This document shows positions 16,801 to 64,000 of a stretch of DNA of 64,000 nt, one piece after another (within the stretch, counting starts at the first letter, position 1; each line of letters starts with the position of its first letter). The notes under the pieces were generated by a model that saw only the letters and a list, made by a program, of their open reading frames with translations, did not search any database and had not been told where the DNA came from. A program made the position numbers and the translations under genes. The stretch is from Pecten maximus (taxonomy: Eukaryota). The stretch lies in the NCBI RefSeq assembly GCF_902652985.1, contig NC_047030.1, forward strand, positions 6,014,001 through 6,078,000. The letters are read 5' to 3'.

Positions 16801-19800
16801 ACAGCACAGCCTATCGACCAATTGAGCATAGATAAGAAGGAACCTCCCCACTCACACACACAGTTCCAGCTATGGCGTATAAAACATCGCAAGGGAAACT
16901 ATGCCCAGCTTGTCAGTCTCCTCTGCAGGTAAGAGGCGCAGCATCCACGGGGTACACAACACATAATTTATCTGTCTAACATTGGAGACAATTTGGCTTA
17001 TCTTCATTGGCAGACATGATACATATGAAATAGTAACACAACTGACGAAGAAAGACAACTTTATGACTCGTGCCCTGACCGGGCCTCGAACTCACGATCT
17101 ACGGCACCCAATCGCCTAGCCAGAAATACCCGCAGCTTATACCGCTGCTCTTAAAAAGAACGTTTCAATAGCGCAGTGATGGGCGGCCCGATATCCTGAC
17201 ATGATTATATTGAAAGTCGTTTATTAGATGGTATGAATACCTGGATCGCAATGTATTTACATACATGGATGGATATTATAAATATTAATCACAGTACAAC
17301 TACGACAGGAAATCCAAATCTTTATCCTCGGAACATAGTGCATATGATACATGAAGTTGTCTTCCTTCGTCAGTTGTGTTACTATGTTATATATCAAATA
17401 AATAGCACAATGTATCATATGCACTCTGTGTATATCACGTCACCGAGTATTTGATATTTTAACGTAACTCTCATTTTAACATATTTTCATTGTTTTAAGA
17501 ACATCCAAAACATAATTTAAACAATATTTCAAAACATTGCTACTTTTCTTTTTCAGATTTGCACAAATCCCCTGTGTGATAATTCACGGGAAGTTAAAGG
17601 GGTCTACGTACGAAGTCGGAGAGAAGATGGATGACGAACAGCATTATGGGGAGTGGAATGCCGTTCTCATGAATGGAGATTGGCGATTCATTAACGCTTA
17701 CTGGGGCACGTGCGCTGAGGGTGGAGTCGAGGACACTAAATGGGAAGTGGTTGACAGAGGAGGTGGGGAGGATGTGAAAGGAGATCAAATCAGCAAACAG
17801 CTTTTCTATTCTTGTGACGAAAACTACTTTTTGACAGATCCCGATCAAATGGCAAGTACCCATCTCCCTCAGGATCCAATATGGCAGCTAAAAGATATGC
17901 CAGTGACGGAAGAAAACTTTGAGGAAAGAGCATTTCTAAAGGACAGATATTTCAATTTGAAGCTTAAACTGATATCCCCACAAAAATGTGTTGTGCACGC
18001 GACAGGAGAATTCGAGATCAAATTTGAACTGCCCGAAGATAAATATATGAACATGGATTTTCAGTACCTAATGTTTAGACTGAAACGAACCTCTGCTCAA
18101 GGATCCTTACACAGGTAAGTTGACAAGATACTTATTTCACAAAAGTATGAACCAAGAATACACAATGTCTTATTGACACTCTTACTGGATATAATTATAT
18201 ATATTATTCTACACTGCATTGCTTACACAGTTAAATTGATGCATCTACGACGAGTCAGCGTAAATGTCTTATCTTTAGTGTGTAAATAAAAAAAATCAAT
18301 ATATGAAAACTTTATGTGAGAAGTATTAAGATGGTTAAGTGTGATGTTTTACGAATTTGAATACATCGGAAGAATCCTCGGCACTTTTTGTTATACGTAT
18401 AATATTGATGCGGATGTTTGTTTTAGATATGACCGGTACGTGTTCCTCCATAGAGTCAATGCCACACGTCTCGTCATCCGCATACGTTCTCCAGTCGCCG
18501 ACACCTTCCGGTTTGAATTAGTGGGCAAGGATGTAACGGTAGATGACCCTGCTTACGATTATGATTGGTTGACAATATTTAAAATCATATTCAATAGCGA
18601 GAAAGAGAACTGTGAACCTTTCCCGGAATGTCCAGTCATAGGCTGGGGACCAGGTCGAGACACAATTGAATGTGGACTGGCTCCTATGAGCCACTTTGGC
18701 GGTGAGATCCAGGCCAAAGACACCGGCGCGTTGGAAGTCAAATTCAGTCCAGTCGATGTAAAGGACTGGAGCACAAAGACAGTAAGGGCTGAACTAGTCA
18801 AAGGTGGAAACAACGCTGAAGACTTCTCAGACCATGTCGTACAAAGATACGAAAATGGTGACCTCATCTTCAACGTAAACACTCCACGTCAAGGAGAATA
18901 CGCTTTGAAGTTGTTTACAAAAGAAGATGGTGAGGAAATAGACAAAAACTTTTGCAATTATCTCGTGACGTCTAAACAAATAGGTGAGAATTTTGCATTC
19001 CCTCGTGGTTTCAATGAGAAACTTGGCCCCAAAAAGGGAGCAATGAAGGCAGGGATAAAGGCAATGTCTCATCCCTCGGGATTTATCCATTGTGAAGACG
19101 AAGAAATTGTGCTTGAATTCCAGAACGACAACAACATTGACCTTTCCCTGAATTTGTCGGGGAAAATGGTGCGGCCGGAAGTGGCCAAGAGACTAATTAA
19201 ACAAGAGCAAGATGGCAATGTTTGTCGATTTACTGTCCGTTTCCCCCAGAACGGCAATTACGGTCTAAGGCTCATGGGTAACACGGGAAAAGGTTTCCAA
19301 AGCCTGTACGACTATGTGGTTAAGTACAAGAAAAACCGAACAAAAAAGACACTCGTGGCGCCTGGAACGCAAACCCAGGTAGGCGGAACAACGGTCATCT
19401 CAGAAAGTGATAGACCACAGGCCAGTGGAATAGGAGACAAATCCCTGGGATCTCGTAAGTCCTGATTACTGTTATTAAGTTTAACATTAGATTACAGCAT
19501 GAAAAATTAACACTACGCACAGAGCTTGAATATAGATATATCGAAATGAAACAATGTATGAAACTTGACATGTTCGCTAGCTGCTCGTGGAAGAGCCCTC
19601 CCAAAAATATCGCAAACATGCATGTAGCACAAGCGCAAAATGACTTCGTATGCAGAATATAAGTCATCAGATCGCCATGAAGATCTGGTTGTGGAATTAT
19701 CTCATTCGGGTGTGATGTCTTTCGCCTTTTTCGAGAAGAGCAAAAGAATATAAAAATTCAGTCCTTTTCAAAAATAATCATCTTGATGTTTAGATATTGA

Positions 19801-26049: not shown

Positions 26050-26196
26050 GTATATGTAACAGCTGCTACATCCTTTTATTTTGTATTATTCGTCTAACTG
26101 CAAATGATATAATGCAAAATATTGTGTTAATGACCCAAAGACATTGACACTGTTCAATACAAATTGAAAGTTAGAGCTAAAATCTTAATTAAACTA

Positions 26197-26238
26197 CATC
26201 ATACAATTGTTTCGTTCTTCTAGGACTCGTCAGTGATG
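26197..26238 (-). ncRNA. Minimal hammerhead ribozyme with intact catalytic core
   Basis: Minus strand reads CAUCA CUGACGA GUCC UAGAA GAAC GAAA C AAUU G UA/UGAUG. Stem I is CAUCA:UGAUG, the core is CUGANGA plus GAAA, stem III is the palindrome ACAAUUGU, and the cleavage triplet is GUA. Stem II has one mismatch. Confidence 0.7.
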
Positions 26239-27440
26239 GTAGGGGAATCATTTAGCTGATTCATCCTTCTAGCACTTGTCGACGATGGTAGGGGAATCAT
26301 TTAGCTGATTCATCCTTCTAGCACTCGTCAGTGATGGTAGGGGAATCATTTAGCTGATTCATCCTTCTAGGACTCGTCAGTGATGGTAGGGGAATCATTT
26401 AGCTGATTCATCCTTCTAGCACTCGTCAGTGATGGTAGGGGAATAATTTAGCTGATTCATCCTTCTAGCACTCGTCAGTGATGCTGATTCATCCTTCTAG
26501 GACTCGTCAGTGATGCTAGGGGAATCATTTAGCTGATTCATCCTTCCAGGACTCGTCAGTGATGGTAGGGGAATCATTTAGCTGATTCATCCTTCTAGGA
26601 CTCGTCAGTGATGGTAGGGGAATCATTTAGCTGATTCATCCTTCTAGGACTCGTCAGTGATGGTAGGGGAATCATTTAGCTGATTCATCCTTCTAGCACT
26701 CGTCAGTGATGGTAGGGGAATCATTTAGCTGATTCATCCTTCTAGCACTCGTCGACGATGGTAGGGGAATCATTTAGCTGATTCATCCTTCTAGGACTCG
26801 TCAGTGATGGTAGGGGAATCATTTAGCTGATTCATCCTTCTAGGACTCATCAGTGATGGTAGGGGAATCATTTAGCTGATTCATCCTTCTAGGACTCGTC
26901 AGTGATGGTAGGGGAATCATTTAGCTGATTCATCCTTCTAGGACTCGTCAGTGATGGTAGGGGAATCATTTAGCTGATTCATCCTTCTAGGACTCGTCAG
27001 TGATGGTAGGGGAATCATTTAGCTGATTCACCCTTCTAGGACTCGTCAGTAATGGTAGGGGAATCATTTAGCCGATTCATCCTTCTAGGACTCGTCAGTA
27101 ATGGTAGAGGAATCATTTAGCTGATTCATCCTTCTAGGACTCGTCAGTAATGGTAGGGGAATCATTTAGCTGATTCATCCTTCTAGCACTCGTCGGCGAT
27201 GCTAGGGATATCATACAGCTGTTTCGTCTTTCTAGGTCGAGACGATAGGGATATCAATCAGTTGTTTCGTCCTTCTAGGACTCGTCCCTGATGATAGGGG
27301 CAGCAGACAGCTCTTTCATCCTACTAGGACTCGTTATTGATGATAAGGACATCATTCAGCTGTTATGTCCGTCTAGGACTCATCAGTGATGGTAGGGACA
27401 TCATACAGCTGTTTCGTCCTTCAAGGACTGGTCAGTGGTG
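26197..27440 (-). repeat. 49-bp tandem satellite (~25 copies) built from minimal type I hammerhead ribozyme motifs
   Basis: Plus-strand unit aggactcgtcagtgatggtaggggaatcatttagctgattcatccttct. The minus-strand consensus of the terminal copies is CAUCA CUGACGA GUCC UAGAA GGAC GAAA C AGCU G UA UGAUG. Confidence 0.85.
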
Positions 27441-28779
27441 GTTATGGTGTGGCTAAAGTGTTGATACCTAGGGAAGGAAGCAGATCAACCTACTGATTTG
27501 CATACTTGATTAGATTTTCATTCTTTAGATAAAGCTGTTTTAAAAGCACAACTTGCATAGTTTTATGGGCTTCAAATATAGAAACTTCAAAAAGGCATTT
27601 GAAAGAGAAGAGGGGGAACCCGTCAACGTTCTACTTACAGACACTGATATAGACATTTAAAGATTTTTACATCAATCTAATAACGGTTTACCAGACTTGC
27701 TAAAGCAAATCATGAATTCCTGTTAACTCTATGTTTACGTGGTGTTTTGTGTAATACACCCTGTGAACAAAATTTTTCGCACTCTAATGTGTATGACTAT
27801 TTCACTTTTTAGTCCCACGTTGTTCAACTGTTATATAATGAAAAATCCATTCAAATCCGCCACAAATCATCTTCTCAAACTATAGTAAACAAATCTATTT
27901 AAAGCTAGTATCAATATAAATCGTTCCATACAAGCATACAAAAACATACAACATAAAAAGTAAATAATGTGTTTAATGTGAAAATATTCAGTAATATTAA
28001 AAGGTAAAACATGTTGTTTACCTGGCGTAGAACAGAAAACGCTCTCACGTGGTTTCCATGTTATCTATTACTATTCTAGTATATTCCACATACAATTGAT
28101 CAAACACTTCACAAAAGAGAGAATCAATGTAGCTAAGAGCGCATTATCCTATCAGTGGGATTTCCTTGGTTTTTCAGACGGGGTTTTCGGATAGATTTCC
28201 ACGGGAATACATTTAACAGCGTAACAGGAGAATATCCATTAAAAATCAATATCACTTACATATATTAACACATTGACAGTCTATATATGGCAATGACCGG
28301 TGACTCGGATTGTTGACACAGTCTATATATAGCAATGACCGGTGACTCGGATTGTTGGTATCGGATGGTTCCATTTTGTCCCCAGGGTATGCCAGGTTCC
28401 TGCTTTATGTGTATATACCATTAATCGATGTTACTTAAATGTACTTTCATCTGCGTCATTTTAATTACCATACTCTAAATACATAAATATAATCCAATCT
28501 ACGGGCCGCGTAGATACTATTTAAATTTACTAAGATGTTGCATATTTCTTAGGTAGACATTTTACTATGAATTAACAGATTAATGAGAGAGTTTGTAGCA
28601 TATTTGATGAAATCTAATTGGAATGATCACGTTTGACACTATTTCTTTCATAAATGTGTTTGATTGAATATTTACTTAGATCATGTAAGAAGTTATTCTG
28701 TAGTTAGTTAATATTCATTTACTACCTATATGGATTTAGACTCGCCTGAACTGAATAGTTAACCCTCATTAAGTAGCAT

Positions 28780-34523: not shown

Positions 34524-35384
34524 CATTGATCATTGGTCTTTAGGAAAACGTTACCAAGACAACAACAATTATATATAATGGTGTCCAGGCCTGAATATGT
34601 ATGATGAAGTAATATATACTGTTTTTCTAAGTAATAAATATCAATATAAAAAACAGCTAAATCGTATTCCTATGGCCAATCAAGGAAGCCGTGAGTTCCA
34701 AAGTAAAATTATGAAAATAAACAAAATGGTCAGAACAAAGTTTCGATAACAAAGAGGAAGTATTATAAAGATTGAACAAAAGTCACACAGGAGATGAGCA
34801 CATTAGCATATTTAACTTTTTCGTCCCTTAAGGACTCGTCAGTGTTTCCATGCGTCTAAAGTATAGATCATGTATGAGAAGGCTACTATAACTAGAAATA
34901 CGAACCAAGAATACCAATGGCTGGGGAGATGCAAAACCAGTTTTGATGTTGAATTTAATATCAAGAATATTAAGTGCATATTCGTAATTGTTTTATTATT
35001 AAAAACAAAGAAACGCATACCACAATTTGTTTTGTAAATTAGGACAGTGCTTATTTTTAAACAAAATAAAAAAAAAACCGATATGAATCGGCTCGAGAAC
35101 TATTCCCATGCTATCTATCTGTAATTTAGCATTACAGCACAACCCCACGACGGGAAATGATAACGCGCTTCTCCCCAAACTTAAAGACTTTTACGAAACA
35201 CACAAGTGGATATTTCCTTTAAAGTTTAATATTTGTTCCACTTAAACCGTATCATTTTAACGATCCTCAAAGCATCATACTACATTCCCAATGGTTTAAA
35301 TAATTTAGTATCTTATCAGTTAATATCGTTTGGTCCGCAGTTTTGTCAATCTATTTAACGCTCAATTGTTTCATCATTTAACAT

Positions 35385-39546: not shown

Positions 39547-42500
39547 ATGGCTAAAGTAACACAACAGGAACTTGGTGAGCTGAAATCTCTAGCTGCTCCT
39601 CCGCAGATCATTAAAGATGTACTGGCAGCTGTAATGATATTGATAGGGGAACCTAATCCAAGGGTAAGTATATATATATACTTTTAATATACTAGTAGTA
39701 TATCAATCAATCGTATGTACATATAAAACAAAGTAAAATATATATACGTGAGCACTTGCAATATACCATACGATAAATAGCCTGAATGAAATTTCAACGA
39801 GGATTTCTTTATATCAAAGCTACTTTCTAAAGTTGTATATAAATATATGTAAGTCACACTAACAAGTAAAGCTACAACGATTGTTAAACACGTCAGTATC
39901 AAATATTTTCAAGACATTTACAGCACTTTCTTGACTGTTATATACCATAGCGTTCATACCTCCATAATATACCATAGCGTTCATACCTCCATAATCACAC
40001 TAAAAGTGAATTACTGCATATACCATAGCGTTCATACCTCTATAAACAAACTAAAAGTTAATTACTTTATTTACATCGAATATAATTAAGGTCTATTAGA
40101 GTATATGAACCTATGGGAAATTCAACTTATTTCTATTTTCCTTAACTTCATTGTTTAAACTGTTAATTACATACTACCGAGAGTAAGGTATATTACCGCC
40201 ATACTTTGAATAAAGTTGAATGAAATTAAGAATATGTATTCACAGCTTCCTCTGAATGATATATTATAATCATTAGTTACAATAGCATTGACTTATGGCC
40301 ATAGTTTAACGTCTATCAGTTATATCTGTTAAATAAATTCGACTTAAATTGACAGATAACCATATCCCTGTCATACTTGCGTTTTGTGCCTTGACCTTTA
40401 AAGTAGCTTTGATGCATATACAAATGTATGTGTTTTCAACAGCGCTGCAAGAGAACTCGCCAAAAGGTCTTGAAATAGTAAATATCGTTTGATATCAGTC
40501 CCTTCTAATTCTGTTGTAGGAGTATAAAACAGCTCAAAAAGTATTATCGCAGAGATCATATGACAACTCTATGATAGAAAGACTTTCGACACTAGATGTC
40601 GGCACTATCCCTATGGAGGAAGTTGTGAAAGCACAAGGACTTGTTGACGGAATAACAATAGAAAATGTTCAAAAAGTTAGTTTGGCTGCCTGCGGTATCT
40701 TTTCCTGGGTATGTATATATACATGTTTCATTTCTATATAATTGTTTGCCCAGTGTTTGTACTGTTTGGGTTTTTTTTTCATACCCTAAGGAAAATGAAA
40801 AAATGCTTAAATATATACAACTGTATATATACTGAAACGAAAAAGAAACGCAACTTCAAATTGTAGGTTTAATAAAATAATACTTGTGAGCATTATGTTT
40901 AAATTTCATATGTAATAGTTAATATTGAATATTGATGTAACATCCTTTAAATGTTTAGAGATTTTTAAGAACAGGTCACTTTGCTAGAAGGTCATGATTG
41001 GTAGTACCCTACGTGAATCCAAGTTGAAATGGCAGCAGTTTTGAAACCGTGCCCTAATATCGTGTGTGTCCTCCTCGAACAGTTATCACATCTCTAATTC
41101 TTTGTTGCATTGAGTTCATCAGGGCATTGACTTTCCGTATTGGAATGTTATTCCATTCTTGGACGAGTGCATTTGCTAACTGAGGGAGGGTATTTGGGGG
41201 GTTACGGCGATTTCGAATTCTTCTGTCTAATTCATCCCACAAATGCTCGATTGGGGACAGGTCGGGGCTATATGGAGGCCAATCTATAGGAACAATGTTC
41301 TGTGTCGCAAGAAAGTCTCTACAGACTCTTGCAACGTGTGGTCTCGCGTTATCTTGCTGAAAGGTTAGATGATGCTGCCTAACAAACGGCACAACATGGG
41401 GCCTAAGGATCTCATCCCGATAGCGTACGGCCGTTAAATTCCCATTGACTATCACCAAAGGCGTCTTCAAACCATGGGAGATTCCCGCCCAAACCATAAC
41501 TGATCCACCCCCAAATCGGTCGTGTTCCAAAACACAGGCGTCAGCAAAACGTTCGCCTCGACGCCGGTACACACGTTGACGGCCATCTGCTCGAAATAAC
41601 GTGAATCGAGATTCATCGGTGAAGAGCATAGACCTCCAACGTCTCATAGGAAAACGTCTGGGCATATGTGCCGTTGCCCATTGCATACGACGTGCTCGAC
41701 GTTGCGGTGTTAGTGGTAAACCAACGTACTGTCGCCTTGCACGCAAATTAGCCTCACGCAGTCTGTTGATCACTGTTTGGGGATGAATTCGACGGTTATG
41801 ATTACCAATCGTATTCCTTGTCGTTTCAGCGGCCGTTAATCTCCTGTTACGCAGGTGTGCCAACCTAAGAACCCGGTCTTGACGTCGCGACGTTACGCGT
41901 GGACGTCCTGATCTCGGCTGGTCATCGACTCTTCCTGTTGCGTTAAGACGTGAAACTAATCGACTAATAGTCGATTTGTGAACTCTGAATTGTCGAGCGA
42001 CGTGAAGTTGCGTGTTCCCTGCCAGAAGCATCGCTATAGCACGTCCTCTATCAACCTTTGATAACCGTGGCATAATTGTAAAAGGAATTATTGTTTGCAA
42101 AAGTATTGGCGATGATGTGGCTCAATGTTAGTGATGAATTGATACTGGTTTGAATGAAAAAAGAACGCATATGTTTGTACAGGCACGGTTTTTGATGTTT
42201 TTACCGCGCCGGAAGTGCATAGGTCTCTAGTCACACTTGGGTGATTTTGAAGATTGGTATGGGTGTTAGGCAGGGTGCATGTTTATTTCCGCGATTTTTA
42301 TACAGATATGTATATTTAATACAAAATTAATCACAATTTTCCATGTTGCGTTTCTTTTTCGTTTCAGTATATATTGAAATATCAGGAGATTTATAGAAAA
42401 TAAACAACAAGGCATAAGTATTGGACGCACTTATTTGTTCATCTGTAAATTAATTAAATTCGAAGGCAAACTCATCAACACCACAATAGCGTGACATTAT

Positions 42501-45365: not shown

Positions 45366-45967
45366 TTAAGACTTTTACATCTGGTGATAAAGGGGAAAGT
45401 GATTGTGTTTATAATACCGAGACGATGCATCCATAAACGACGAACGAGAACAATCAATAGGTGCCTATTATCTCAATACATTTCCAAACAAAAAAATATT
45501 AACTCCACTAAAAAAAAACACGGGTCATTATTTCTTGACCGTGTCGTATCCCCTTAACAATCATCTTTCAACGATAACTCAAAGACAACTTGCAAATTAC
45601 TATACTAGTAATTCTGCTCTGAATTCACATTAAATACAAGAACATTTTTTGCAATGTTCATCTCGGGGAAAAGGGCACATGAAACATTTCCGTAACGGAA
45701 ATGGACATGTGTTCAAGTTCAATATTCTATAGAGCAAATAGTGAAGTAGTTAATGGTTTTTGAATGTGGTGTATATGCAGGTAGACATACGTTTTAGGCA
45801 ATAAAAAGACATATGACATGCAATGTGAGGTATCTATCAAATATATTGCGCAAGGCATTATGCAGCATCCGTATTGAAACCTTCGTATTTATGTCATTTG
45901 TCATCTTGTATTTTTTAATTACGCAAATACCAGCTTTAACACATAGCCTACTATGAGACTTAATTCA

Positions 45968-46373
45968 ATACACAAATAAACATATACAGTTTTGGGGTCT
46001 ACAAAATGAAATTTACGTCAATACAAAGATAAAAACATAGGTTTGGGGTCTTCAAAATGAAATTTACGTCTATTCAAAGATAAAAACATACAGGCTTGGT
46101 GTCTACAAAATGAGATTTACGTCAAAACACAGATAAAAACATACAGGCTTGGTGTCTACAAAATGAAATTTACGTCAATACACAGATAAAAACATACAGT
46201 TTATGGGTCTTCAAAATGAGATTTACGTCAAAACACAGAATAAAAGCATACAGTTTTGGGGTCTACAAAATGAGATTTACGTCAAAACACAGATAAAAAC
46301 ATACAGGCTTGGTGTCTACAAAATGAAATTTACGTCAATACACAGATAAAAACATGCAGTTTTTTCGGTCTAC
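45968..46373. repeat. ~53-bp tandem repeat (~7.5 copies)
   Basis: Unit gtctacaaaatgaaatttacgtcaatacacagataaaaacatacaggcttggt. Confidence 0.9.
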
Positions 46374-48432: not shown

Positions 48433-51400
48433 ATGGTAAGCAAAGGCGATGTTACTGAGCTGAAGTCTCTCAGTAATCCTCCGCAACACGTCAAACAGGT
48501 CCTTACAGCTACAGTGACACTGCTTGGGGAGGAAAACGCAGAGGTATGAAAACCAAGTAGTACATATTGATTCAGTAGAATCTGAATTATTCTGCATGTT
48601 ATCGGCACTGACCGGAACCGTACTTAACACTACAACTCGTGTTAGCATTAACCTAACTAACTATTTTTCTCTGTCTTTTGAGTTGTAAATTTATTTTAAT
48701 TGTTGCAAACAACAAGAGATAATTATTTTGAAACAATTTTAGATATAATACGTTTTCCAATCATAGAAATTTTAAATTATATTAAGCTAACAATGCAGAT
48801 TATATTACCTAGGGCAGATCACCTGTGTCGCTGATAAGCCAGGTAAAATACTCATGCTGTTTATATTCAATCAGAATTGTTAGCATAATTTGAAAACAGC
48901 TGTCATAACTCTTAACTTTTGATTTCTTTATAGTACAGAAATACTCACATTATCTATCATGTGCGAAATTCAAAGTTGTAAATGTGAAAGATCGTTCTTA
49001 TATTACAAATACTGGTCTACGTATCTGTATTTGTCTGTAGATGATACCCGTCTTAACATTTATATAATATTCAATATCCATACTGATTGAATTAAATCTT
49101 GGGGTAGGTCTACCTCTCTTTCCATTACTTAACAGTGATTTACTTCATCAAATATCCTTAATATATCGAAATAGTTTACATCCTCTATTTTGTGTATCGT
49201 AATTGCAACATAAAAAAGATGTTGATCAAAATCAGAAGAAATGTAGCAATGCCTTGATGTTCACCATTAAAATAACGATGATTTCGTTTCTAATATATTT
49301 GTAGGATTACAGATATGTTAAAAGAGCATTGGGTGACTCCACATTTTTGCAAAGTTTAGCAAAAATAGATGTCGGTTCTATTCCTCCTGAGGTGGCTGCG
49401 AAGGCACGTGGTTACATTGATGGTATCTCAGAGGATCAAATCCGCAATGTTAGTAAGGCGGCATGTTCCCTCTTCCGTTGGGTAAGTTGGTAAACATCTG
49501 ATCTATCAAACCCATGTTTATTTGAAGGAGAAGAATGCTGCAATGAACAAACAAGCATTGCTTTGGTTCGTTAACATTCCATGTAACATTGCTACACCAA
49601 CATAGTACTTCTTTGTTACTCGGCCTCATTTATGCTTAATGTACCTGGTTTATAAAGACCTATATTAAAACTTGTGATAACAAACTTTACTCAACGTGTA
49701 CGTAATTCTGGGTTGAATATTTCTATAATTATTATTGATTATACAGTTCTATGAGCGAGGACATCAATGTACTCCAAGACTTTTATCCTCATTTTTTGAC
49801 AGTTGTAGGAATTGGAAGATAGTTGTCATTTGTAGGAATGGGTAGAGAATAGTCAGTTGTAGGAATGGGTAGGTATTGGTCAGTTGTAGGAACGGGTACA
49901 TATTAGTCAGTTGAAGGAACGGGTACATATTGGTCAGTTGTAGGAATGAGTAGATATTGGTCAGTCGTAGGAATGGGTAGATATTAGTCAGTTGTAGGAA
50001 CGGGTACATATTGGTCAGTTGTAGGAATGGGTACATATTGGTCAGTTGTAGGAATGGGTAGGTATTGGTCAGTTGTAGGAATGGGTAGATATTGGTCAGT
50101 CGTAGGAATGGGTAGGTATTGGTCAGTCGTAGGAATGGGTAGATATTAGTCAGTTGTAGGAATGGGTAGATATTGGTCAGTTGTAGGAATGGGTAGATAT
50201 TGGTCAGTTGTAGGAATGGGTAGGTATTGGTCAGTTGTAGGAATGGGTAGATATTGGTCAGTTTTAGGAATGGGTAGATATTGGTCAGTTGTAGGAATGG
50301 GTAGATACTGGTCAGTTGTAGGAATGGGTAGATATTGGTCAGTTGTAGGAATGGGTAGATATTAGTCAGTTGTAGGAATGGGTAGATATTGGTCAGTTGT
50401 AGGAATGGGTAGATATTGGTCAGTTGTAGGAATGGGTAGGTATTGGTCAGTTGTAGGAACGGGTACATATTGGTCAGTCGTAGGAATGGGTAGATATTGG
50501 TCAGTCGTAGGAATGGGTAGATATTAGTCGATTGTAGGAATGGGTAGATATTGGTCAGTTGTAGGAATGGGTAGGTATTGGTCAGTTGTAGGAACGGGTA
50601 CATATTGGTCAGTCGTAGGAATGGGTAGATATTGGTCAGTCGTAGGAATGGGTAGATATTGGTCAGTTGTAGGAACGGGTAGATATTGGTCAGTTGTAGG
50701 AATGGGTAGATATTGGTCAGTCGTAGGAACGGGTACATATTGGTCAGTTGTAGGAATGGGTACATATTGGTCAGTCGTAGGAACGGGTACATATTGGTCA
50801 GTTGTAGGAATGGGTAGATATTGGTCAGTTGTAGGAACGGGTAGATATTGGTCAGTTGTAGGAATGGGAAGGTAGTTGTCAGTTGTAGGAATGGGTAGAT
50901 ATTGGTCAGTTGTAGGAATGGGAAGGTAGTTGTCAGTTGTAGGAATGGGTAGATATTGTTCAGTCGTAGGAATCGATAGATATTAATCAACTATAAAAAT
51001 CGGTTAATATTAGTCAGCTATAGAAATCGGTAGATATTAGTCAGCTATAGAAATCGGTAGATATTAGCCAGCTATAGAAATCGGTAGATGTTAGTCAGCT
51101 ATAGAAATCGGTAGATATTAGTCAGCTATAAAAATGAGTAGATATTAGTTAGCTATAGAAAGGGGCATACATTAGTCAGCTATTAAAAGGGGTAGATATT
51201 AGTTAAATAATGGGATATATATATATCAATCAGCTATATAATATGATACATATTAGTCAGCTATTAAAAGAGGTAGGTAAATTATTCAGCTATATAACGG
51301 GATATATATTAATCAGCTATATAATAGGATATATATATTTGCCGGCTATTAAAAGGGGTAGAAATTAGTCAGCTATAAAAATCGGTAGATATTAGTCAGC

Positions 51401-51625
51401 TATAGATATGGGAAGATATTAGTCAGCTATAGATATGGGAAGATATTAGTCAGCTATAGATATGGGCATATATTAGCTATAAGGCGTATCTTTTTACATT
51501 TTCATTTCCTTGTTTCACATTATCATAATGTACATCATTTTTACGTGTTTCAGATACATGAAATATTAGCTGCAGTCGAAAAGAGAACAAGCGATCCGAG
51601 CGCGACAGCAAAGCCACAAGCCTGA
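48433..51625 (+). CDS. Stand-alone dynein-MTBD-like small protein, paralog 4 (119 aa, 3 exons)
   Basis: Exons 48433-48543, 49305-49481, 51554-51625; AATAAA at 51826. Protein MVSKGDVTELKSLSNPPQHVKQVLTATVTLLGEENAE|DYRYVKRALGDSTFLQSLAKIDVGSIPPEVAAKARGYIDGISEDQIRNVSKAACSLFRW|IHEILAAVEKRTSDPSATAKPQA*. Confidence 0.85.
49798..51480. repeat. 27-bp minisatellite (~44 homogeneous copies to ~50990, then a diverged variant) in intron 2 of paralog 4
   Basis: Unit ttggtcagttgtaggaatgggtagata, grading into ttagtcagctatagaaatcggtagata. Confidence 0.95.
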
Positions 51626-53053: not shown

Positions 53054-54959
53054 CTTTTCTTAGTGAATGATTAACTATTTATCTTTAACTATTTATCCTT
53101 TCAGTACTAGAAAGAATGAAAATATCCTCTTTGAGGTACACATGATTTCTTAATGGAAAGCAAAGTATATCACGAATTTCATGTCAACTCAAATATGGCG
53201 TGCTAAACAAAACTTGTCAATTAAGCAGCATGCTATAACAGAGAAACCTGGGTGAATATTGTAGATATTTGGCAAAATGAAGGGGAAAATAAATATCTTT
53301 CTATTGTATGTAGTTTCAATGTACAATCCAGTGAATCATTAATTGATCAAAAGATTTATTGATTTTGAGGTTCATTCGGATACTACGACAAAAGTAAAAC
53401 ATTTAAAATTTAAAAAAAAAAAGCTTATTCAGTTGACATATCCGACGACATCCGCCGATGCTAATGAAATACTCCACATTCTGGTTAATGTATTTGCGCC
53501 AATTTTATAGACACTGATTTCTAAACCTTAAGATACTAAGATTACGAAAAAAGGGGAGATAATGTTAGGTACGTGTGTGTTTGGCGTACACGAATAGGTT
53601 CAGAAAGCTGATTTAAAATCTTAAACATGCAAAAGGTATTTCTTTGGAACACGTGCATCCCATTTGTCCAACTCGCAAAATTAATAGTAACAGGTAAACG
53701 TACTAAGTGAGACTGGCCAGACGCTATTTGACTGATATTCCTGTGGTTTGGTAGATGTGATTTTAAGACATACTTCGACGAGAAAAGTTCGTTGTAAGAT
53801 TTCATGGCTGGCCAGTGTGACGCAGCAGGATCAATACTTTATATCGATCTGATGGCGTTTTGGTAGCGGTAAAAATGAAGCATAGATCCCATTAACTTCG
53901 TGGTTTCAAAATATACACACCTGCTAACGTAGAGGTCTTGTATATTTCATGGAATAATATTTTGGACTTCCAAATATAATTACTGTAACGTGTACCATCT
54001 ATACAACCCAACCTGGTCGACATTAAACATGTATGAAAACAATAAATGTCACGTTTCTTAAATAAACAGTCCTAGTAATCCCCACCACTCGTCGTGCACG
54101 TTCTTTCAAGTACATAGAGGTAGGTCTACGGAGTACTACTTATTATGTATGTGAGTAGAGAATATGAATAGTCAAGTTTGTCATCGGCTCTATTTAAGAA
54201 GGCAACTATGATTTTAGGTTTAATTTTATTGTTTTCTCATTTTTATTTCTTTTGGAGGTGAATATATATATAAGAGAAAGTATCCGTAATGTGAAAATCA
54301 AACCCAAGTAAGCTAACAAGGACAGGAGTAGGTATTACGTCAGATCAAATACATTGTATTTTGATACGGGACAGCAAACACATCTCTCTTACATTCAAAC
54401 AGCATTGTTGACTTACATTTGGTATATCTACCATTATGTTGGACGTTGAAACTTTTTTAAGAAACGTTTTTCTTTTGATAGCATACCTATCAAATACTTC
54501 TGGAAAGTACACCTGCATTCCTTCACTTCTGTACTTAAACATTTGTTTCATCATACGATGACGAGCTCTAAAATAACGAAATAGCAGCGTGGTTCATTCT
54601 ATTACTAAATACTTGGCAGATACATAGTGCATTGTTCATATATATCTTACGTCGTATATACATGCTGAATTAGATTTTCATTTTTTTTTTCTTTTGGATT
54701 TCAACTCTTCAACGATGTGTATTTTGATAGCAAGAAACAGGCTGTAAATGCTGGGTTTGGAATAAATAAATGTATATCAACTCTTATATATCTGTTATAG
54801 CATTATATCTTAACCATTCATGTTATGTCTGTAATAAACCTAGGGAAATTTTACCATGGAGGATAATCTACAAATATCAACATGACGAGTTGTAGCAATA
54901 CGACATACGAGACATTAACAATTTTGTATACATATTGAGAGTTAGTTACAATAAAGCGG

Positions 54960-55320
54960 ACCGTACAGTTGCTTCTTCCTTTTACATGTAAGACACCTCT
55001 GTGATGGTAGGGACACTGTACAGCTTTTTGGTCCTTCTACATGCAGGACTCGTCAGTAATGCTAGGGACATCATATAGCCATTTGGTCATTCTACATGTT
55101 GGACTCGTCAATGAAGCTAGGAACATCATGCAGTTATTTCGTCCTTCAAGTTTTATGACTCGTCAGTGACGTTCTGAACACCATGCAGCTTTTTTGGCAT
55201 TCTGCTTGCTGGACTCGTCAGCGATGTTTGGGACACCATACAATTATTTCGTCCTTCAATTTTTATGACTCGTCAGTGATGTTAGGAACCTAATACAGCT
55301 GTTTGAACCTTCTACATAGA
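54960..55320 (-). repeat. Diverged ~55-bp tandem array (~6 copies) of the same hammerhead-motif family
   Basis: Repeated gactcgtcag...atg(c/t)tagg(g/a)acatcat...tttcgtcc motif matching the 26-27 kb unit, with a longer loop II. Confidence 0.75.
55234..55281 (-). ncRNA. Minimal hammerhead ribozyme with intact core
   Basis: Minus strand reads CAUCA CUGACGA GUC AUAAAAAUUGAAG GAC GAAA U AAUU G UA/UGGUG. Stem I has one G-U pair and stem II is 3 bp. Confidence 0.6.
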
Positions 55321-55748
55321 GAGCTACGTTGAGTATCCTTTAATGTTAACATCCGAATCAAATAAAAATATTCAAGATCCGTCCCACATTGGAAAACAAC
55401 CACTTTTTGTTTGAAATACATTTGAGTTTTTCTATCGTATAAGTAATTGTGGAGTTTATTCCACTCGCTTGGAAGGTCCTTATGATGTTTAAAACTCTAT
55501 ACTCACAACACTTTTCTTTCCATTTTTATTGCTACATTTAAAACAAAAATTTGATTGTCCGTGGAGTTCATTATCTCTATATAAGGAGGTTTCTTGTTTG
55601 ATTTTAGTCACATGGCCATGTAGTTACTCAAACTTCTCGTTTTTGCATTGTCTTCTATTTCCATTGTCTTCTATTTCAATTATTTTCTATTTCAATTATC
55701 TTCTTACTTTGTTCATGGGTACATCATTGTTTATCTGTTACATGAGGT

Positions 55749-58635: not shown

Positions 58636-60229
58636 ATGTATGGGATCAAGAAAGGGGACGTTGCTGAAGTAAAGGCTCTTTGCTCCCCTCCACGTTCCGT
58701 CGTACAAGTCCTTTCAGCTACAATGACACTGCTTGGAGAGGTGAACCCAGGGGTAAGTCTGAATACTGATCCTGTGAAGTAGGGACAATGCGGAATGTCT
58801 TGAACGTTGCGGACACTTTCAAGAAACGTCTAAGATATATTGTTTTCCTGTAGCGCCTTTGATATCCAATATTGAACGTCCTGTAATGTAACGCGTTTCT
58901 GGAAACTCTCCATCAAGATTTTGACATTTCTTTTTTCTTTGGACTAATTTAGTTTCCTCTGATTCCTCAGTTATCCACATTTTAGGTCCCTATCGTCATG
59001 ACAAGGACGAATCAGTTGTTTGATTCAGTTTAATTTAAGTTTGGCTCTATCTTATAATTCTCAATTTATATACAAAGGTGATATTTCCTATGTGTAATCC
59101 TGTTATTACGTAGCTTGAGTAATCATCGTTTTCCTGCTTTTTGAAAAAAATGAAAATACATAACAATGCCGTCGCGTTTCTCTTCAGTATAAAATCCCAA
59201 ACCGATGGCGATGAAGTGTTTTCAATGCTAAACTTTTCCAACATCTGCCTCATATAAGTTTCAATAACATCGCAACCTACAAAACGGATAACTGAATATT
59301 GATATGACGATTCATACAGATAGACTATTTATTATATTATTTTATTTTATTTTTTTTAATTTTAACTCTAATATTATTCTAGAAATGAAATTTATCGTAA
59401 AAAAACGCATTTTCCGTCATTGTTAAATCATCCACCGCCTAGGTGAAAGGCCAATGGGTTACCACTGTGCCACCCGACCATCCTTCATCAACTTGATAGG
59501 GAAAACTGGATTTTTTTTCCTGTTGTGTCTTTCATACTGACAAATGAATTTAACTTTAGGATTTCAGGAATATCAAAAGAGTACTGGCTCATTCGACATT
59601 TTTACAAAGAGTGACAACACTAGATACTGACTCTATTTCCCCTGAGGTGGCTGTGAAGGCGCGTGGGTATGTCGAGGGTATCACAGAGGAGCAAATCACC
59701 AAAGTCTGTTTAGCTTCAACCTCCTTCTTCCGTTGGGTATGTATATTTATTAATCAATGAACAATTTATTTCGGGGAAATCTTTTGATATGATTTAGCTT
59801 TTTTTCCCCAAAGTCTCTTTTATTTAACCATTTATGTCATATGTTTTAACTAAAACATAATTGACATCAATGCTAAAAATAATTTTTTGAAATTGATTTT
59901 TAAAATCAAAACATGTTCTATGTGCAATTTGAATGATCTAATAAGGGATTCTTTTCACAAATCAATACGCAAAGTTTATCGCTGTATTGTCACGTCACAT
60001 TTTTCTGGCAATTTTCGATTTTTTTTATTTTTCTTTCATAGAGGTATGAAAACAAATTTCAACATATTAGAAAGCCGCATTCTGCGTACGAACAATAGAA
60101 AATTAATTATATGAATTTGACACAATCACTATACCTGTGTATTTGCTACAGGTACGTGATGTATTAGCCGCTGTCGCGAAGAGAACAGGAGATCTTCCCG
60201 AAGCGGCAAAGAAGGAACCTGCAAGTTGA
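58636..60229 (+). CDS. Stand-alone dynein-MTBD-like small protein, paralog 5 (123 aa, 3 exons)
   Basis: Exons 58636-58752, 59560-59736, 60152-60229. Protein MYGIKKGDVAEVKALCSPPRSVVQVLSATMTLLGEVNPG|DFRNIKRVLAHSTFLQRVTTLDTDSISPEVAVKARGYVEGITEEQITKVCLASTSFFRW|VRDVLAAVAKRTGDLPEAAKKEPAS*. Confidence 0.85.
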
Positions 60230-61103: not shown

Positions 61104-62328
61104 AAACATGAGTATAGACATAGGGAAGGGGCATAACTCCCTTAAAAACATGAGTCTAGACATTGGGAAGGGGCATAACTCCCATAAAAACATGAGTCTA
61201 GACATAGGGAAGGGGCATAACTCCCATAAAAACATGAGTATAGACATTGGGAAGGGGCATAACTCCCATAAAAACATGAGTATAGACATAGGGAAGGGGC
61301 ATAACTCCCATAAAAACATGAGTCTAGACATTGGGAAGGGGCATAACTCCCATAAAAACATGAGTATAGACATAGGGAAGGGGCATAACTCCCATAAAAA
61401 CATGAGTCTAGACATTGGGAAGGGGCATAACTCCCATAAAAACATGAGTCTAGACATAGGGAAGGGGCATAACTCCCATAAAAACATGAGTCTAGACATT
61501 GGGAAGGGGCATAACTCCCATAAAAACATGAGTCTAGACATTGGGAAGGGGCATAACTCCCATAAAAACATGAGTCTAGACATAGGGAAGGGGCATAACT
61601 CCCATAAAAACATGAGTCTAGACATTGGGAAGGGCATAACTCCCATAAAAACATGAGTATAGACATTGGGAAGGGGCATAACTCCCATAAAAACATGAGT
61701 CTAGACATAGGGAAGGGGCATAACTCCCATAAAAACATGAGTATAGACATTGGGAAGGGGCATAACTCCCATAAAAACATGAGTATAGACATAGGGAAGG
61801 GGCATAACTCCCATAAAAACATGAGTCTAGACATTGGGAAGGGGCATAACTCCCATAAAAACATGAGTATAGACATAGACAAGGGGCATAACTCCCATAA
61901 AAACATGAGTCTAGACATTGGGAAGGGGCATAACTCCCATAAAAACATGAGTCTAGACATTGGGAAGGGGCATAACTCCCATAAAAACATGAGTATAGAC
62001 ATAGGGAAGGGGCATAACTCCCATAAAAACATGATTCTAGACAAAGGGAAGGGGCATAACTCCCATAAAAACATGAGTCTAGACATTGGGAAGGGGCATA
62101 ACTCCCATAAAAACATGGGTCTAGACATTGGGAAGGGGCATAACTCCCATAAAAACATGAGTCTAGACAAAGGGAAGGGGCATAACTCCCATAAAAACAT
62201 GAGTCTAGACATTGGGAAGGGGCATAACTCCCATAAAAACATGAGTCTAGACATTGGGAAGGGGCATAACTCCCATAAAAACATGAGTCTAGACAAAGGG
62301 AAGGGGCATAACTCCCATAAAAACATGA
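61104..62328. repeat. 42-bp minisatellite (~29 highly similar copies)
   Basis: Unit aaaacatgagt(c/a)tagacat(t/a)gggaaggggcataactcccata; an inverted partial unit lies at ~60872-60891. Confidence 0.95.
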
Positions 62329-64000
62329 GGCTCAATACAAACAGTGTCCAGTTGTTCAAAAGATGGTTAGGGTAATCACAGTTTAACAGCTATTTCCCAA
62401 TCACGATGAAAATAGTTTCTGGTTACATTAAATTGACAAAATTTATCGAAATTCTACATATCTCTACTCTCTTACTGTTACCTTATATAAGATGTACTCA
62501 AGGTTTGCAAGAAATGAGAAACAAATTGTTCGCTTATTAAGTGATTAAGCTAATCATGTTTTAAACAACTTGGGCCATGGGACCAGCTCTTAACCGACAT
62601 TTATGTTCATACTTCTTGGTGTCGACAACAGTTAAGTTTATAATAGTCTGGATAAAAACTGTAGAAGCTTCCGATGCTAAAAATATCCGTTCAATAACAT
62701 CATTGATAATACCGATATAACCAGTACTACACGTCCTTCTTTCGTCAGTATAACGACATTCATTGAACAGTCAAACATCATTTGACATAGAGTCTCATAA
62801 CGACCACGCCGAACACAGGTCGAAATGAAAGTAGAAATGAGTTTGTTCATTCATATTTTATTTAAAACATGTACATATATAGATGAATCTACTATAAAAT
62901 TTCGCATTCCTCTGGGAAACACCAGACTATTTGTAGGCGTATTTTCTAAAAGATTATACAGTAAAATCCTGATATTATAAAAAGATAATTACTGTCGTTA
63001 CCATAGTATTGCATCAACGGTCTAAATGTCTACAGGAGCTCAATCTAACCTGCAACAGTTTCGGTATGGATTCCGTTTTGTAAATAAAGTTTATATAACC
63101 GAAAAACAAAAGCAAAACACAAATGATGATAAGAAGAAGAAGAAGAAGAGGAGGAATTTGACAGAAACCGTGAGTTTTATATTGTCCCATCACCGTAAAT
63201 AAATTATGATCGGGTTGGTAACTCCTTGAAGTAAGTATTCTTGTCAACTTTTCTTATGAAAGTAACCCTTTAACTAGGGTACTTAATTTGAAATACTTAC
63301 TAGATTATTATGTTATCAGTGAATGATAGTAAACAATAAACCGTTGACATTCATATAAATATATCCCCAATAGATACAGATCTAATAAAATTGCTATATC
63401 CTTAAACTAAAAGTTGATATATCGTTGAATTAAAATTTGTTCTGTCGTTAAACTAAACATCAACATATCATCATATTCAAAAATCACATGAATGATGTAC
63501 AAATTCATTATTTTTACAGTGAGTAAAAATATTTAGTTCTAGATAATACTCAAACAATGTAACACATTTAACAATACTAAACTAGCACAACAATTAGCCT
63601 TGGGAAAGAAAAATTCAGACTACAACAGGTGCCCCCGGAATGTTGATGATGCTGCAAACAGAGAATATATTATATGATATAGATAGATCCTATTGTGTTG
63701 TTTGTTTTGTATGTAGATATATTGGTTATGTTGTATTAAAGGACATGTTTCACGTTTACTACAACATAATCAATAGATCGTGACGAGCAAATGGATCCGA
63801 ATAACAGTTCCAAAAATACAAAGAAATTTGGTAACTGTGTCCAAGGAAATTGAGATATAATGATGTATGGCATGTGGTTATAATTTAATCTTAATTGAAA
63901 CAAGTGCTTGAATATGCTAAAATATATGCTATTATCCCATCACATACTTAAGTCACTGCTGTGTGCAAAATTTTGAATGGCACCTGCGTAGCCATTTGTA

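Follow-up and report, generated by a model that had tools for sequence, protein, structure and literature searches.

A 49-nt hammerhead minisatellite of Pecten maximus as the probable decayed copy of a retrozyme-like element

A stretch of 64,000 nucleotides from Pecten maximus (contig NC_047030.1, positions 6,014,001 to 6,078,000; hereafter the window) contains a tandem array that the original prediction, made from the sequence alone, described as satellite DNA built of minimal hammerhead ribozymes. The locus raises the question of what such an array is and how a unit consisting almost entirely of ribozyme came to be repeated. We consider it probable that the array is a decayed and locally expanded copy of a non-coding element of about 390 nt with one type I hammerhead. 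This element is likely a non-LTR retrozyme, whose master copy would have acquired a 49-nt duplication and was likely spread to hundreds of sites by a Penelope-type reverse transcriptase.

The array in the window

The tandem organization was confirmed by TRF, which places a 49-bp repeat at 26196-27441. On the minus strand, which carries the hammerhead motif, the array comprises 25 anchored units and one 43-nt unit without CUGA. It forms the central part of a 5'-truncated copy of a dispersed, retrozyme-like hammerhead element of about 390 nt (26120..27472, minus strand; end coordinates accurate to about 5 nt), in which the hammerhead was expanded. In a BLAST search, the family majority sequence matched 27472-27399 at 85% and 26245-26115 at 76%. 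The copy extends from a 5' break near 27472 to the fixed 3' point of the family near 26120. A remnant of the parent element lies upstream of the hammerhead at 27442..27472, where homology ends by apparent 5' truncation, and the 3' tail of the parent (26120..26195) stops at the fixed 3' end of the family; both are on the minus strand. No obvious target-site duplication was seen at this copy on inspection by eye.

The units between these flanks, all on the minus strand, are of different age and state. Five older heterogeneous edge units (27203..27441; four of 49 nt and one of 43 nt) are close to the family unit, and each has a core lesion. The junction of units 1 and 2 (27357..27411) reads as a type III hammerhead with stem I closed by the linker and a broken GAAA; it matches Rfam Hammerhead_3 with E 0.00018 and 33.8 bits, short of the 48.5 set as gathering score. 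Next to them are 20 homogenized inner units (26240..27202), one of which is shortened to 32 nt at 26516-26485. The last unit (26196..26239) is the only one with the full catalytic core. The original prediction had each unit reading GAAA, the palindrome C-AGCU-G, UA and UGAUG. No window unit matches this description in full, and 20 of the 26 have GAAU, no UH site and no hammerhead fold. GAAA is kept in 4 of the 25 anchored units, and the full core (CUGANGA, GAAA, UH) in 1 of 25. The window units, except the last, fail the hammerhead core test.

For the last unit, the core was correctly predicted to be intact: it has CUGACGA, GAAA and UA, and cleavage is predicted to fall between 26202 and 26201. 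It also has a C-A mismatch in stem II. An Rfam scan with Hammerhead_1 did match this edge copy (E 0.0013, 27.6 bits), at less than the gathering score of 34. No hammerhead fold was predicted for it, either by itself (-3.9 kcal/mol, z 0.38) or together with the neighbouring unit, and in none of 11 folded window dimers were three helices around the core the favoured fold.

The 19 full inner units match their own majority at 97%, and this majority departs from the family unit at 7 of 49 positions. These seven private changes abolish GAAA and the UH site and make a new 6-bp hairpin, which three of them perfect; the hairpin possibly arose by template switching. Fold prediction gives the hammerhead helices probabilities of about zero in the homogenized inner units. 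These 20 units are predicted to be inactive, and the window array as a whole is likely dead, an example of the end state only.

A second copy of the element in the window (54903..55340, minus strand) consists of a 55-nt hammerhead-derived array with the same 3' tail as the first; one of its units, with CUGA at 55276, passes the core scan. Four further decayed copies of the approximately 390-nt element were found at 58858-59095 on the plus strand and at 34936-34806, 9799-9661 and 51938-51775 on the minus strand; the one near 34842 retains CUGACGA, stem II and GAAA. In the 20 kb adjoining the window, no copy was found. Short arrays are frequent in this region, and unrelated minisatellites of 30, 52, 53, 27 and 42 bp occur at 3245-4137, 13311-13753, 45965-46363, 49800-51476 and 61104-62329, respectively. 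The window also encodes a 355-aa open frame with Tc1/mariner transposase domains (DDE_3, HTH_Tnp_Tc3_2) at 41054-42121 on the minus strand. Two long frames with KY-like immunoglobulin-like domains (PF23265) at 17516-19465 on the plus strand, opposite to that of the array and about 7 kb away from it, are probably host-gene exons.

The family unit and its parent element

A search with the edge units, in which 40 of 1438 candidates were scored, gave 225 matches; these lie in arrays distributed over many contigs of the 918-Mb genome. The family unit is a canonical type I hammerhead of 44 nt followed by a 5-nt linker. It includes a 6-bp stem I, CUGACGA, a 4-bp stem II with a 5-nt loop and no bulge, GAAA, and an 8-nt palindrome ending in the GUA site. 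G10.1-C11.1 is present together with the core CUGANGA, GAAA and UH. This layout matches the canonical metazoan type I architecture described in the available text of PMC4209133 and not the minimal pLTR type, so that the minimal Penelope-type architecture originally proposed does not apply; the Penelope-like elements of this genome have different hammerheads. The core with helices II and III is present in 918 exact copies genome-wide and in none in a reversed control, which excludes chance for the hammerhead motif.

Exact junction hairpins of four kinds number 5127 in the genome. The first 100 junction matches represent 32 loci across 54 Mb of one contig; by rough extrapolation, the genome would hold between several hundred and about a thousand arrays. 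Among arrays picked on the junction, size varies from 2 to 41 units, and in 30 of these the full core is kept in 49 of 374 units. Instead of the block satellite that the term satellite DNA suggested, the repeat is a dispersed minisatellite within a mobile element. Shortened array variants also exist, with the junction motif every 44 nt at G000:C4:9222065-9223269 and every 39 nt at G000:C1:53903339-53903511. Two arrays 6 Mb apart on opposite strands (L236, G000:C1:14193000-14199000, plus; L237, G000:C1:20261000-20267000, minus) share the same private dead unit, one having the parent 5' flank only and the other the 3' flank only; they may derive from a single array that an inversion divided, or reflect an assembly error.

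The arrays share diverged flanks. Among 25 loci picked on the upstream flank alone, a single hammerhead-like core is directly downstream in 11, an array in 4, and neither by that anchor in 10; the element occurs in both single-hammerhead and array forms. Flanks and hammerhead together make a non-coding unit of about 390 nt with 37% GC and one hammerhead. The genome-wide search for a parent element was successful, and the proposal of a relic with a nearly pure ribozyme unit (44 of 49 nt) is supported as regards derivation from a retrozyme, but the unit described is the ancestral family unit, not the present content of the window. A BLAST match to the parent, in a few cases overlapping the hammerhead itself, lies beside the array in 24 of 31 junction-picked loci, and the other 7 gave no parent flank by BLAST; by a stricter 30-nt test, neither flank is found in 36 of 64 arrays. 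Single copies are 85% like the majority in the core and 75% in the rest, a comparison that includes copies partly picked on the hammerhead.

The element wraps onto itself and not onto an open reading frame. Copies running through the unit boundary, with the end straight into the start, were found at six loci (L046, L048, L069, L071, L073, L097), and the measured element periods are 392, 420 and 362 nt in three loci. Wrap-around copies contain 1.1-1.6 units and there are a few partial dimers. Full tandem multimers of the 390-nt unit are rare in the sample, where most copies span 0.3-1.3 units and long multimers were not seen. Nor were young copies seen in it, most being 65-85% like the majority. 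The two ends of the copies differ in character. In matches of 100 nt or more, 61 of 134 3' ends share a single boundary, past which the sequence is unrelated, and 31 more are array-junction artefacts, whereas 133 5' ends are spread over every bin. The fixed 3' end lies about 75-80 nt past the cut site.

The parent element is likely a non-LTR retrozyme, as it shows most of the testable features of this class: it is non-coding, falls within about 170-400 nt, has GC below 45% and carries a canonical type I hammerhead. In Mytilus, non-LTR retrozymes are repeats of 350-390 bp, according to the accessible text of PMC7229834. The Pecten element resembles these and other metazoan non-LTR retrozymes of that paper in being non-coding and AT-rich (about 390 nt, 37% GC), in carrying a single canonical type I hammerhead, in the head-to-tail junctions seen in several copies, in the thousands of motifs and in the presence of Penelope-like elements in the same genome. 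It differs from the Mytilus retrozymes as described there in that the hammerhead itself is a 49-nt repeat nested in the monomer, and in that the copies are old and mostly shorter than 1.3 units. Retrozyme circles are reported in the same source to be highly self-paired, and the majority sequence of the element is not unusually so: folded as a circle it gives -81.8 kcal/mol, no stabler than 40 shuffles (-79.4 +/- 4.7 kcal/mol), a value for a majority of old copies in which a blend of aged subfamilies may hide structure.

Predicted folding, decay and local expansion

The proposal that such units act as dimers agrees with the folding of intact genomic dimers, which are predicted to form a double hammerhead. 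In the dimer L020:1695-1792 this fold is both the MFE and the centroid structure (-29.7 kcal/mol, z -4.0; equalled by 0 of 200 shuffles). Its two palindromes are predicted to pair into one 8-bp helix III, and the linker to close the inner stem I; the junction piece alone is predicted to fold as a type III hammerhead and the monomer to misfold. Among four intact-looking dimers, two have all three helices above 0.9. We examined 603 junctions in 61 sampled arrays: the core is kept in 146, and both core and predicted fold in 49, which belong to 17 arrays. At least 17 of the 61 sampled arrays therefore retain a junction that is predicted to be competent.

These folds suggest how an intact array could behave. 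Two adjacent intact units would pair their palindromic helix III into an 8-bp helix, giving a double hammerhead in which the 5-nt linker would close the inner core as a compact type III ribozyme. Because neighbours would be paired and the inner core closed by the linker, a transcript of an intact array would be expected to cut itself into 49-nt pieces without a second 390-nt monomer. Dimer-dependent cleavage of motifs with a palindromic helix III is established and often weak, according to the available portions of PMC4209133 and PMC6765202, and the accessible text of 10.64898/2026.07.22.740005 reports no cleavage for 8 of 9 dimers tested. In sequencing runs, part of an intact array was found in 18 of 23 listed, under two species labels, with one of the runs recorded as RNA. 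For four RNA or presumed-RNA runs, covered at 243-1245 contigs each, all four have contigs with family sequence, some of it inside longer records; as assembled contigs carry neither strand nor ends, this shows presence in the libraries only.

It is conceivable, though we hold it to be rather unlikely, that the retrozyme met its need for a dimer by duplicating the ribozyme 5 nt apart. The nearly all-catalyst 49-nt unit would then make any transcript that crosses an intact array self-shredding, and some arrays would still cut in vivo, releasing 49-nt RNAs that may circularize and seed arrays as the smallest retrozyme known.

Sequence divergence was compared over 30 arrays and 374 units. The arrays were picked on the junction only, a choice that favours an intact linker and slightly understates linker divergence; for the per-position counts, the 32 loci were reduced by L231, where a 49-nt unit was not found, and L232, which has a single unit. 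Divergence is 0.151 in the core, 0.146 in the linker and 0.182 in loop II. The difference between core and linker is 0.005 (95% interval -0.04 to 0.05), and the interval for core minus loop II also spans zero. At two CpG sites, core-killing and harmless changes were found in 12 versus 9 and in 18 versus 7 arrays. The core decays at the background rate after insertion. A lack of genome-wide conservation of the core relative to the spacer was one of the outcomes that the original prediction named as counting against it, and in the array copies this conservation is indeed absent: core and linker diverge equally, with no sign of purifying selection on the core.

No excess of compensated pairs was found in stem I or helix III, either in the 603 junctions or in the 5127 exact junctions. 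Covariation in helix III had been claimed for the edge copy, whose palindrome occurs in none of the 374 units. Some L002 units gave the same impression by eye, and this was rejected: other palindromic variants number 3 of 374 in all, and single changes that break the palindrome are frequent (one in 21 units from 7 arrays, another in 13 from 4). A compensatory change of stem I across the junction, hinted at by L003 and by small counts, was likewise rejected genome-wide, with 40 C-G combinations observed against about 57 expected from independence; among 45 outer 5' bases, 17 are G and 17 are A.

After insertion, each array would have grown and homogenized its own mutations at the DNA level, by slippage and unequal exchange, and catalysis would not have been needed. 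Arrays of half or dead ribozymes also expand, which argues that expansion needs no catalysis. At L087 and L091 (G000:C19 near 18.88 Mb), a 42-nt array of more than 3 kb at one site combines the upstream flank with the hammerhead's first half through a short-microhomology join. Further arrays have units of 40, 74 and 55 nt. In the window, a dead variant appears to have taken over 20 of the 26 units.

The same observations bear on the idea that the 49-nt unit is a minimal replicon of its own, with arrays being transcribed, cut to monomers, circularized and reverse-transcribed by rolling circle into new arrays. The ribozyme share of the unit, the perfect predicted folding of dimers, the 918 exact intact copies, the 7 of 31 arrays with no parent flank and the family sequence in contigs of the RNA or presumed-RNA runs would all suit such a cycle. 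We nevertheless judge it improbable: most arrays are bordered by parent sequence on one side or both, decay of the core runs at the background rate, dead or half-ribozyme arrays (the window array; L087, L091, L098) expand equally well, and no sharp peak of 5' ends was found at the cut site, with pieces below 100 nt filtered out.

Origin, mobilization and relation to known systems

The junction between units bears on the origin of the arrays. In the inner junction, the last base of stem I is T in 4849 of 5127 exact junctions, whereas at the outer end of the element the matching base is C in 38 of 50; the linker of the arrays is likewise unlike the parent context. A duplication of exactly 49 nt would result from a 2-nt microhomology in the parent. 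The shared junction, however, departs from such a product at two positions, and the arrays are most simply read as likely descendants of a single master copy that carried the duplication. The majorities of 25 arrays differ from each other by 5.8 nt on average, against 6.2 expected for independent drift from the family unit, a star-like pattern.

The alternative is that copies with a single hammerhead were duplicated independently and in place by microhomology, with the shared phase due to coincidence or gene conversion and the ribozyme playing no part even in a master. The parental microhomology, which gives exactly 49 nt, the separate 42-, 40-, 55- and 74-nt arrays and the many unrelated minisatellites of the window are in keeping with this. 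The two-position difference between the common junction and a fresh product and the dominance of the 49-nt phase in 10 of 14 arrays examined are not, and they make independent duplication an improbable explanation.

We return to descent from a single master. In it the ribozyme would have been duplicated head to tail at 49 nt, and a Penelope-type reverse transcriptase likely inserted it at hundreds of sites. The genome does contain Penelope-like elements that have long open frames: all 150 scored GIY-YIG candidates matched PF01541, with frames of up to 929 aa, and several families have their own, unrelated hammerheads. A fixed internal start of reverse transcription with a genomic tail is described for a Penelope-like element in the accessible part of PMC11167929, and the fixed 3' end of the present element, away from the ribozyme site, fits such internal initiation. 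Partial tandems truncated at the 5' end are described in the available text of PMC8557442. Among the 50 of 150 GIY-YIG loci that were compared, none held an autonomous partner whose terminal repeat is related to the approximately 390-nt element; L144 has a single 50-nt match at its far edge on the opposite strand, which looks like a separate copy. Because none of these 50 elements shares sequence with the unit, we infer the mobilizer and do not assign it to a particular family. An origin of the unit as the minimal hammerhead of a Penelope pLTR was rejected, as no terminal region matched in those 50 of 150 loci and the unit has a 6-bp stem I, an unbulged 4-bp stem II and an 8-nt palindrome, against the short stem I, long bulged stem II and missing helix III of such motifs.

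The GIY-YIG loci include a young high-copy Penelope-like family (L109-L135, L139, L140, L144, L147) with a C-terminal GIY-YIG domain and an ORF of about 780 aa. Its minimal hammerhead shows a U3-A8 core swap and in most copies follows the stop at a distance of roughly 680 nt. At L149, L152, L154 and L139, other type I hammerheads were observed, in which stem II is bulged and helix III is short and palindromic.

Rolling-circle DNA elements can also yield head-to-tail copies, and this was counted in favour of a Helentron-type or MITE-type DNA element with central repeats, like those that scatter short arrays in oyster genomes, in which the hammerhead would be captured cargo. Short arrays in conserved flanks, dispersed genome-wide, are indeed described for non-autonomous Helentrons in the accessible text of PMC7492417, but the element has one fixed end only (3') with scattered 5' ends, and its unit size, GC and central hammerhead match the retrozymes described in PMC7229834, so that we regard this origin as very improbable.

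Among known systems, the vertebrate and insect retrozymes of 10.64898/2026.07.22.740005 are likewise tandem repeats with a hammerhead per unit, their consensus ranging from 51 to 972 bp in the accessible text, which gives the shortest family (51 bp) as a number only. That preprint proposes an origin from Penelope elements followed by local tandem amplification. Its accessible text describes no nested architecture of the mollusc type, and the link to pLTRs found there was not found for the present element in the 50 GIY-YIG loci compared. As in the dimeric hammerheads and Penelope pLTR motifs treated in the available portions of PMC4209133 and PMC6765202, helix III is palindromic and unstable in the monomer, and pairing between neighbours is predicted. 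The pLTR motifs of PMC4209133 have a long stem II and a short stem I, while the present unit has a 6-bp stem I, an unbulged 4-bp stem II and no ORF. Its partners lie 5 nt apart, which makes the inner core a type III hammerhead, unlike the pLTR motifs in the accessible text of these two papers. Tandem DNA repeats encoding hammerheads are also known as newt satellite 2 and the schistosome and cave-cricket satellites (available text of PMC7229834 and PMC6765202). In the newt, the repeat measures about 330 bp and includes a spacer, and the present one is 49 bp and occurs in dispersed short arrays.

We found no report in the literature of a 49-nt hammerhead array nested in a retrozyme or spread to hundreds of loci, and subscription papers or preprint supplements may hold one. 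The nested 49-nt array is a variant of the non-LTR retrozyme theme, and units of about 50 nt are already on record in the accessible text of 10.64898/2026.07.22.740005 (51 bp).

The interest of these repeats rests on the family and not on the dead copy in the window. One genome here displays the way from a mobile element with a ribozyme to minisatellite DNA, the visible steps being a single hammerhead, a 49-nt duplication held in common, dispersal with a fixed 3' end, homogenization within arrays and death. Intact arrays are predicted to encode a natural and very compact double hammerhead, the 98-nt dimer. If competent junctions cut inside host transcripts, they would act as scattered RNA-destabilizing elements.
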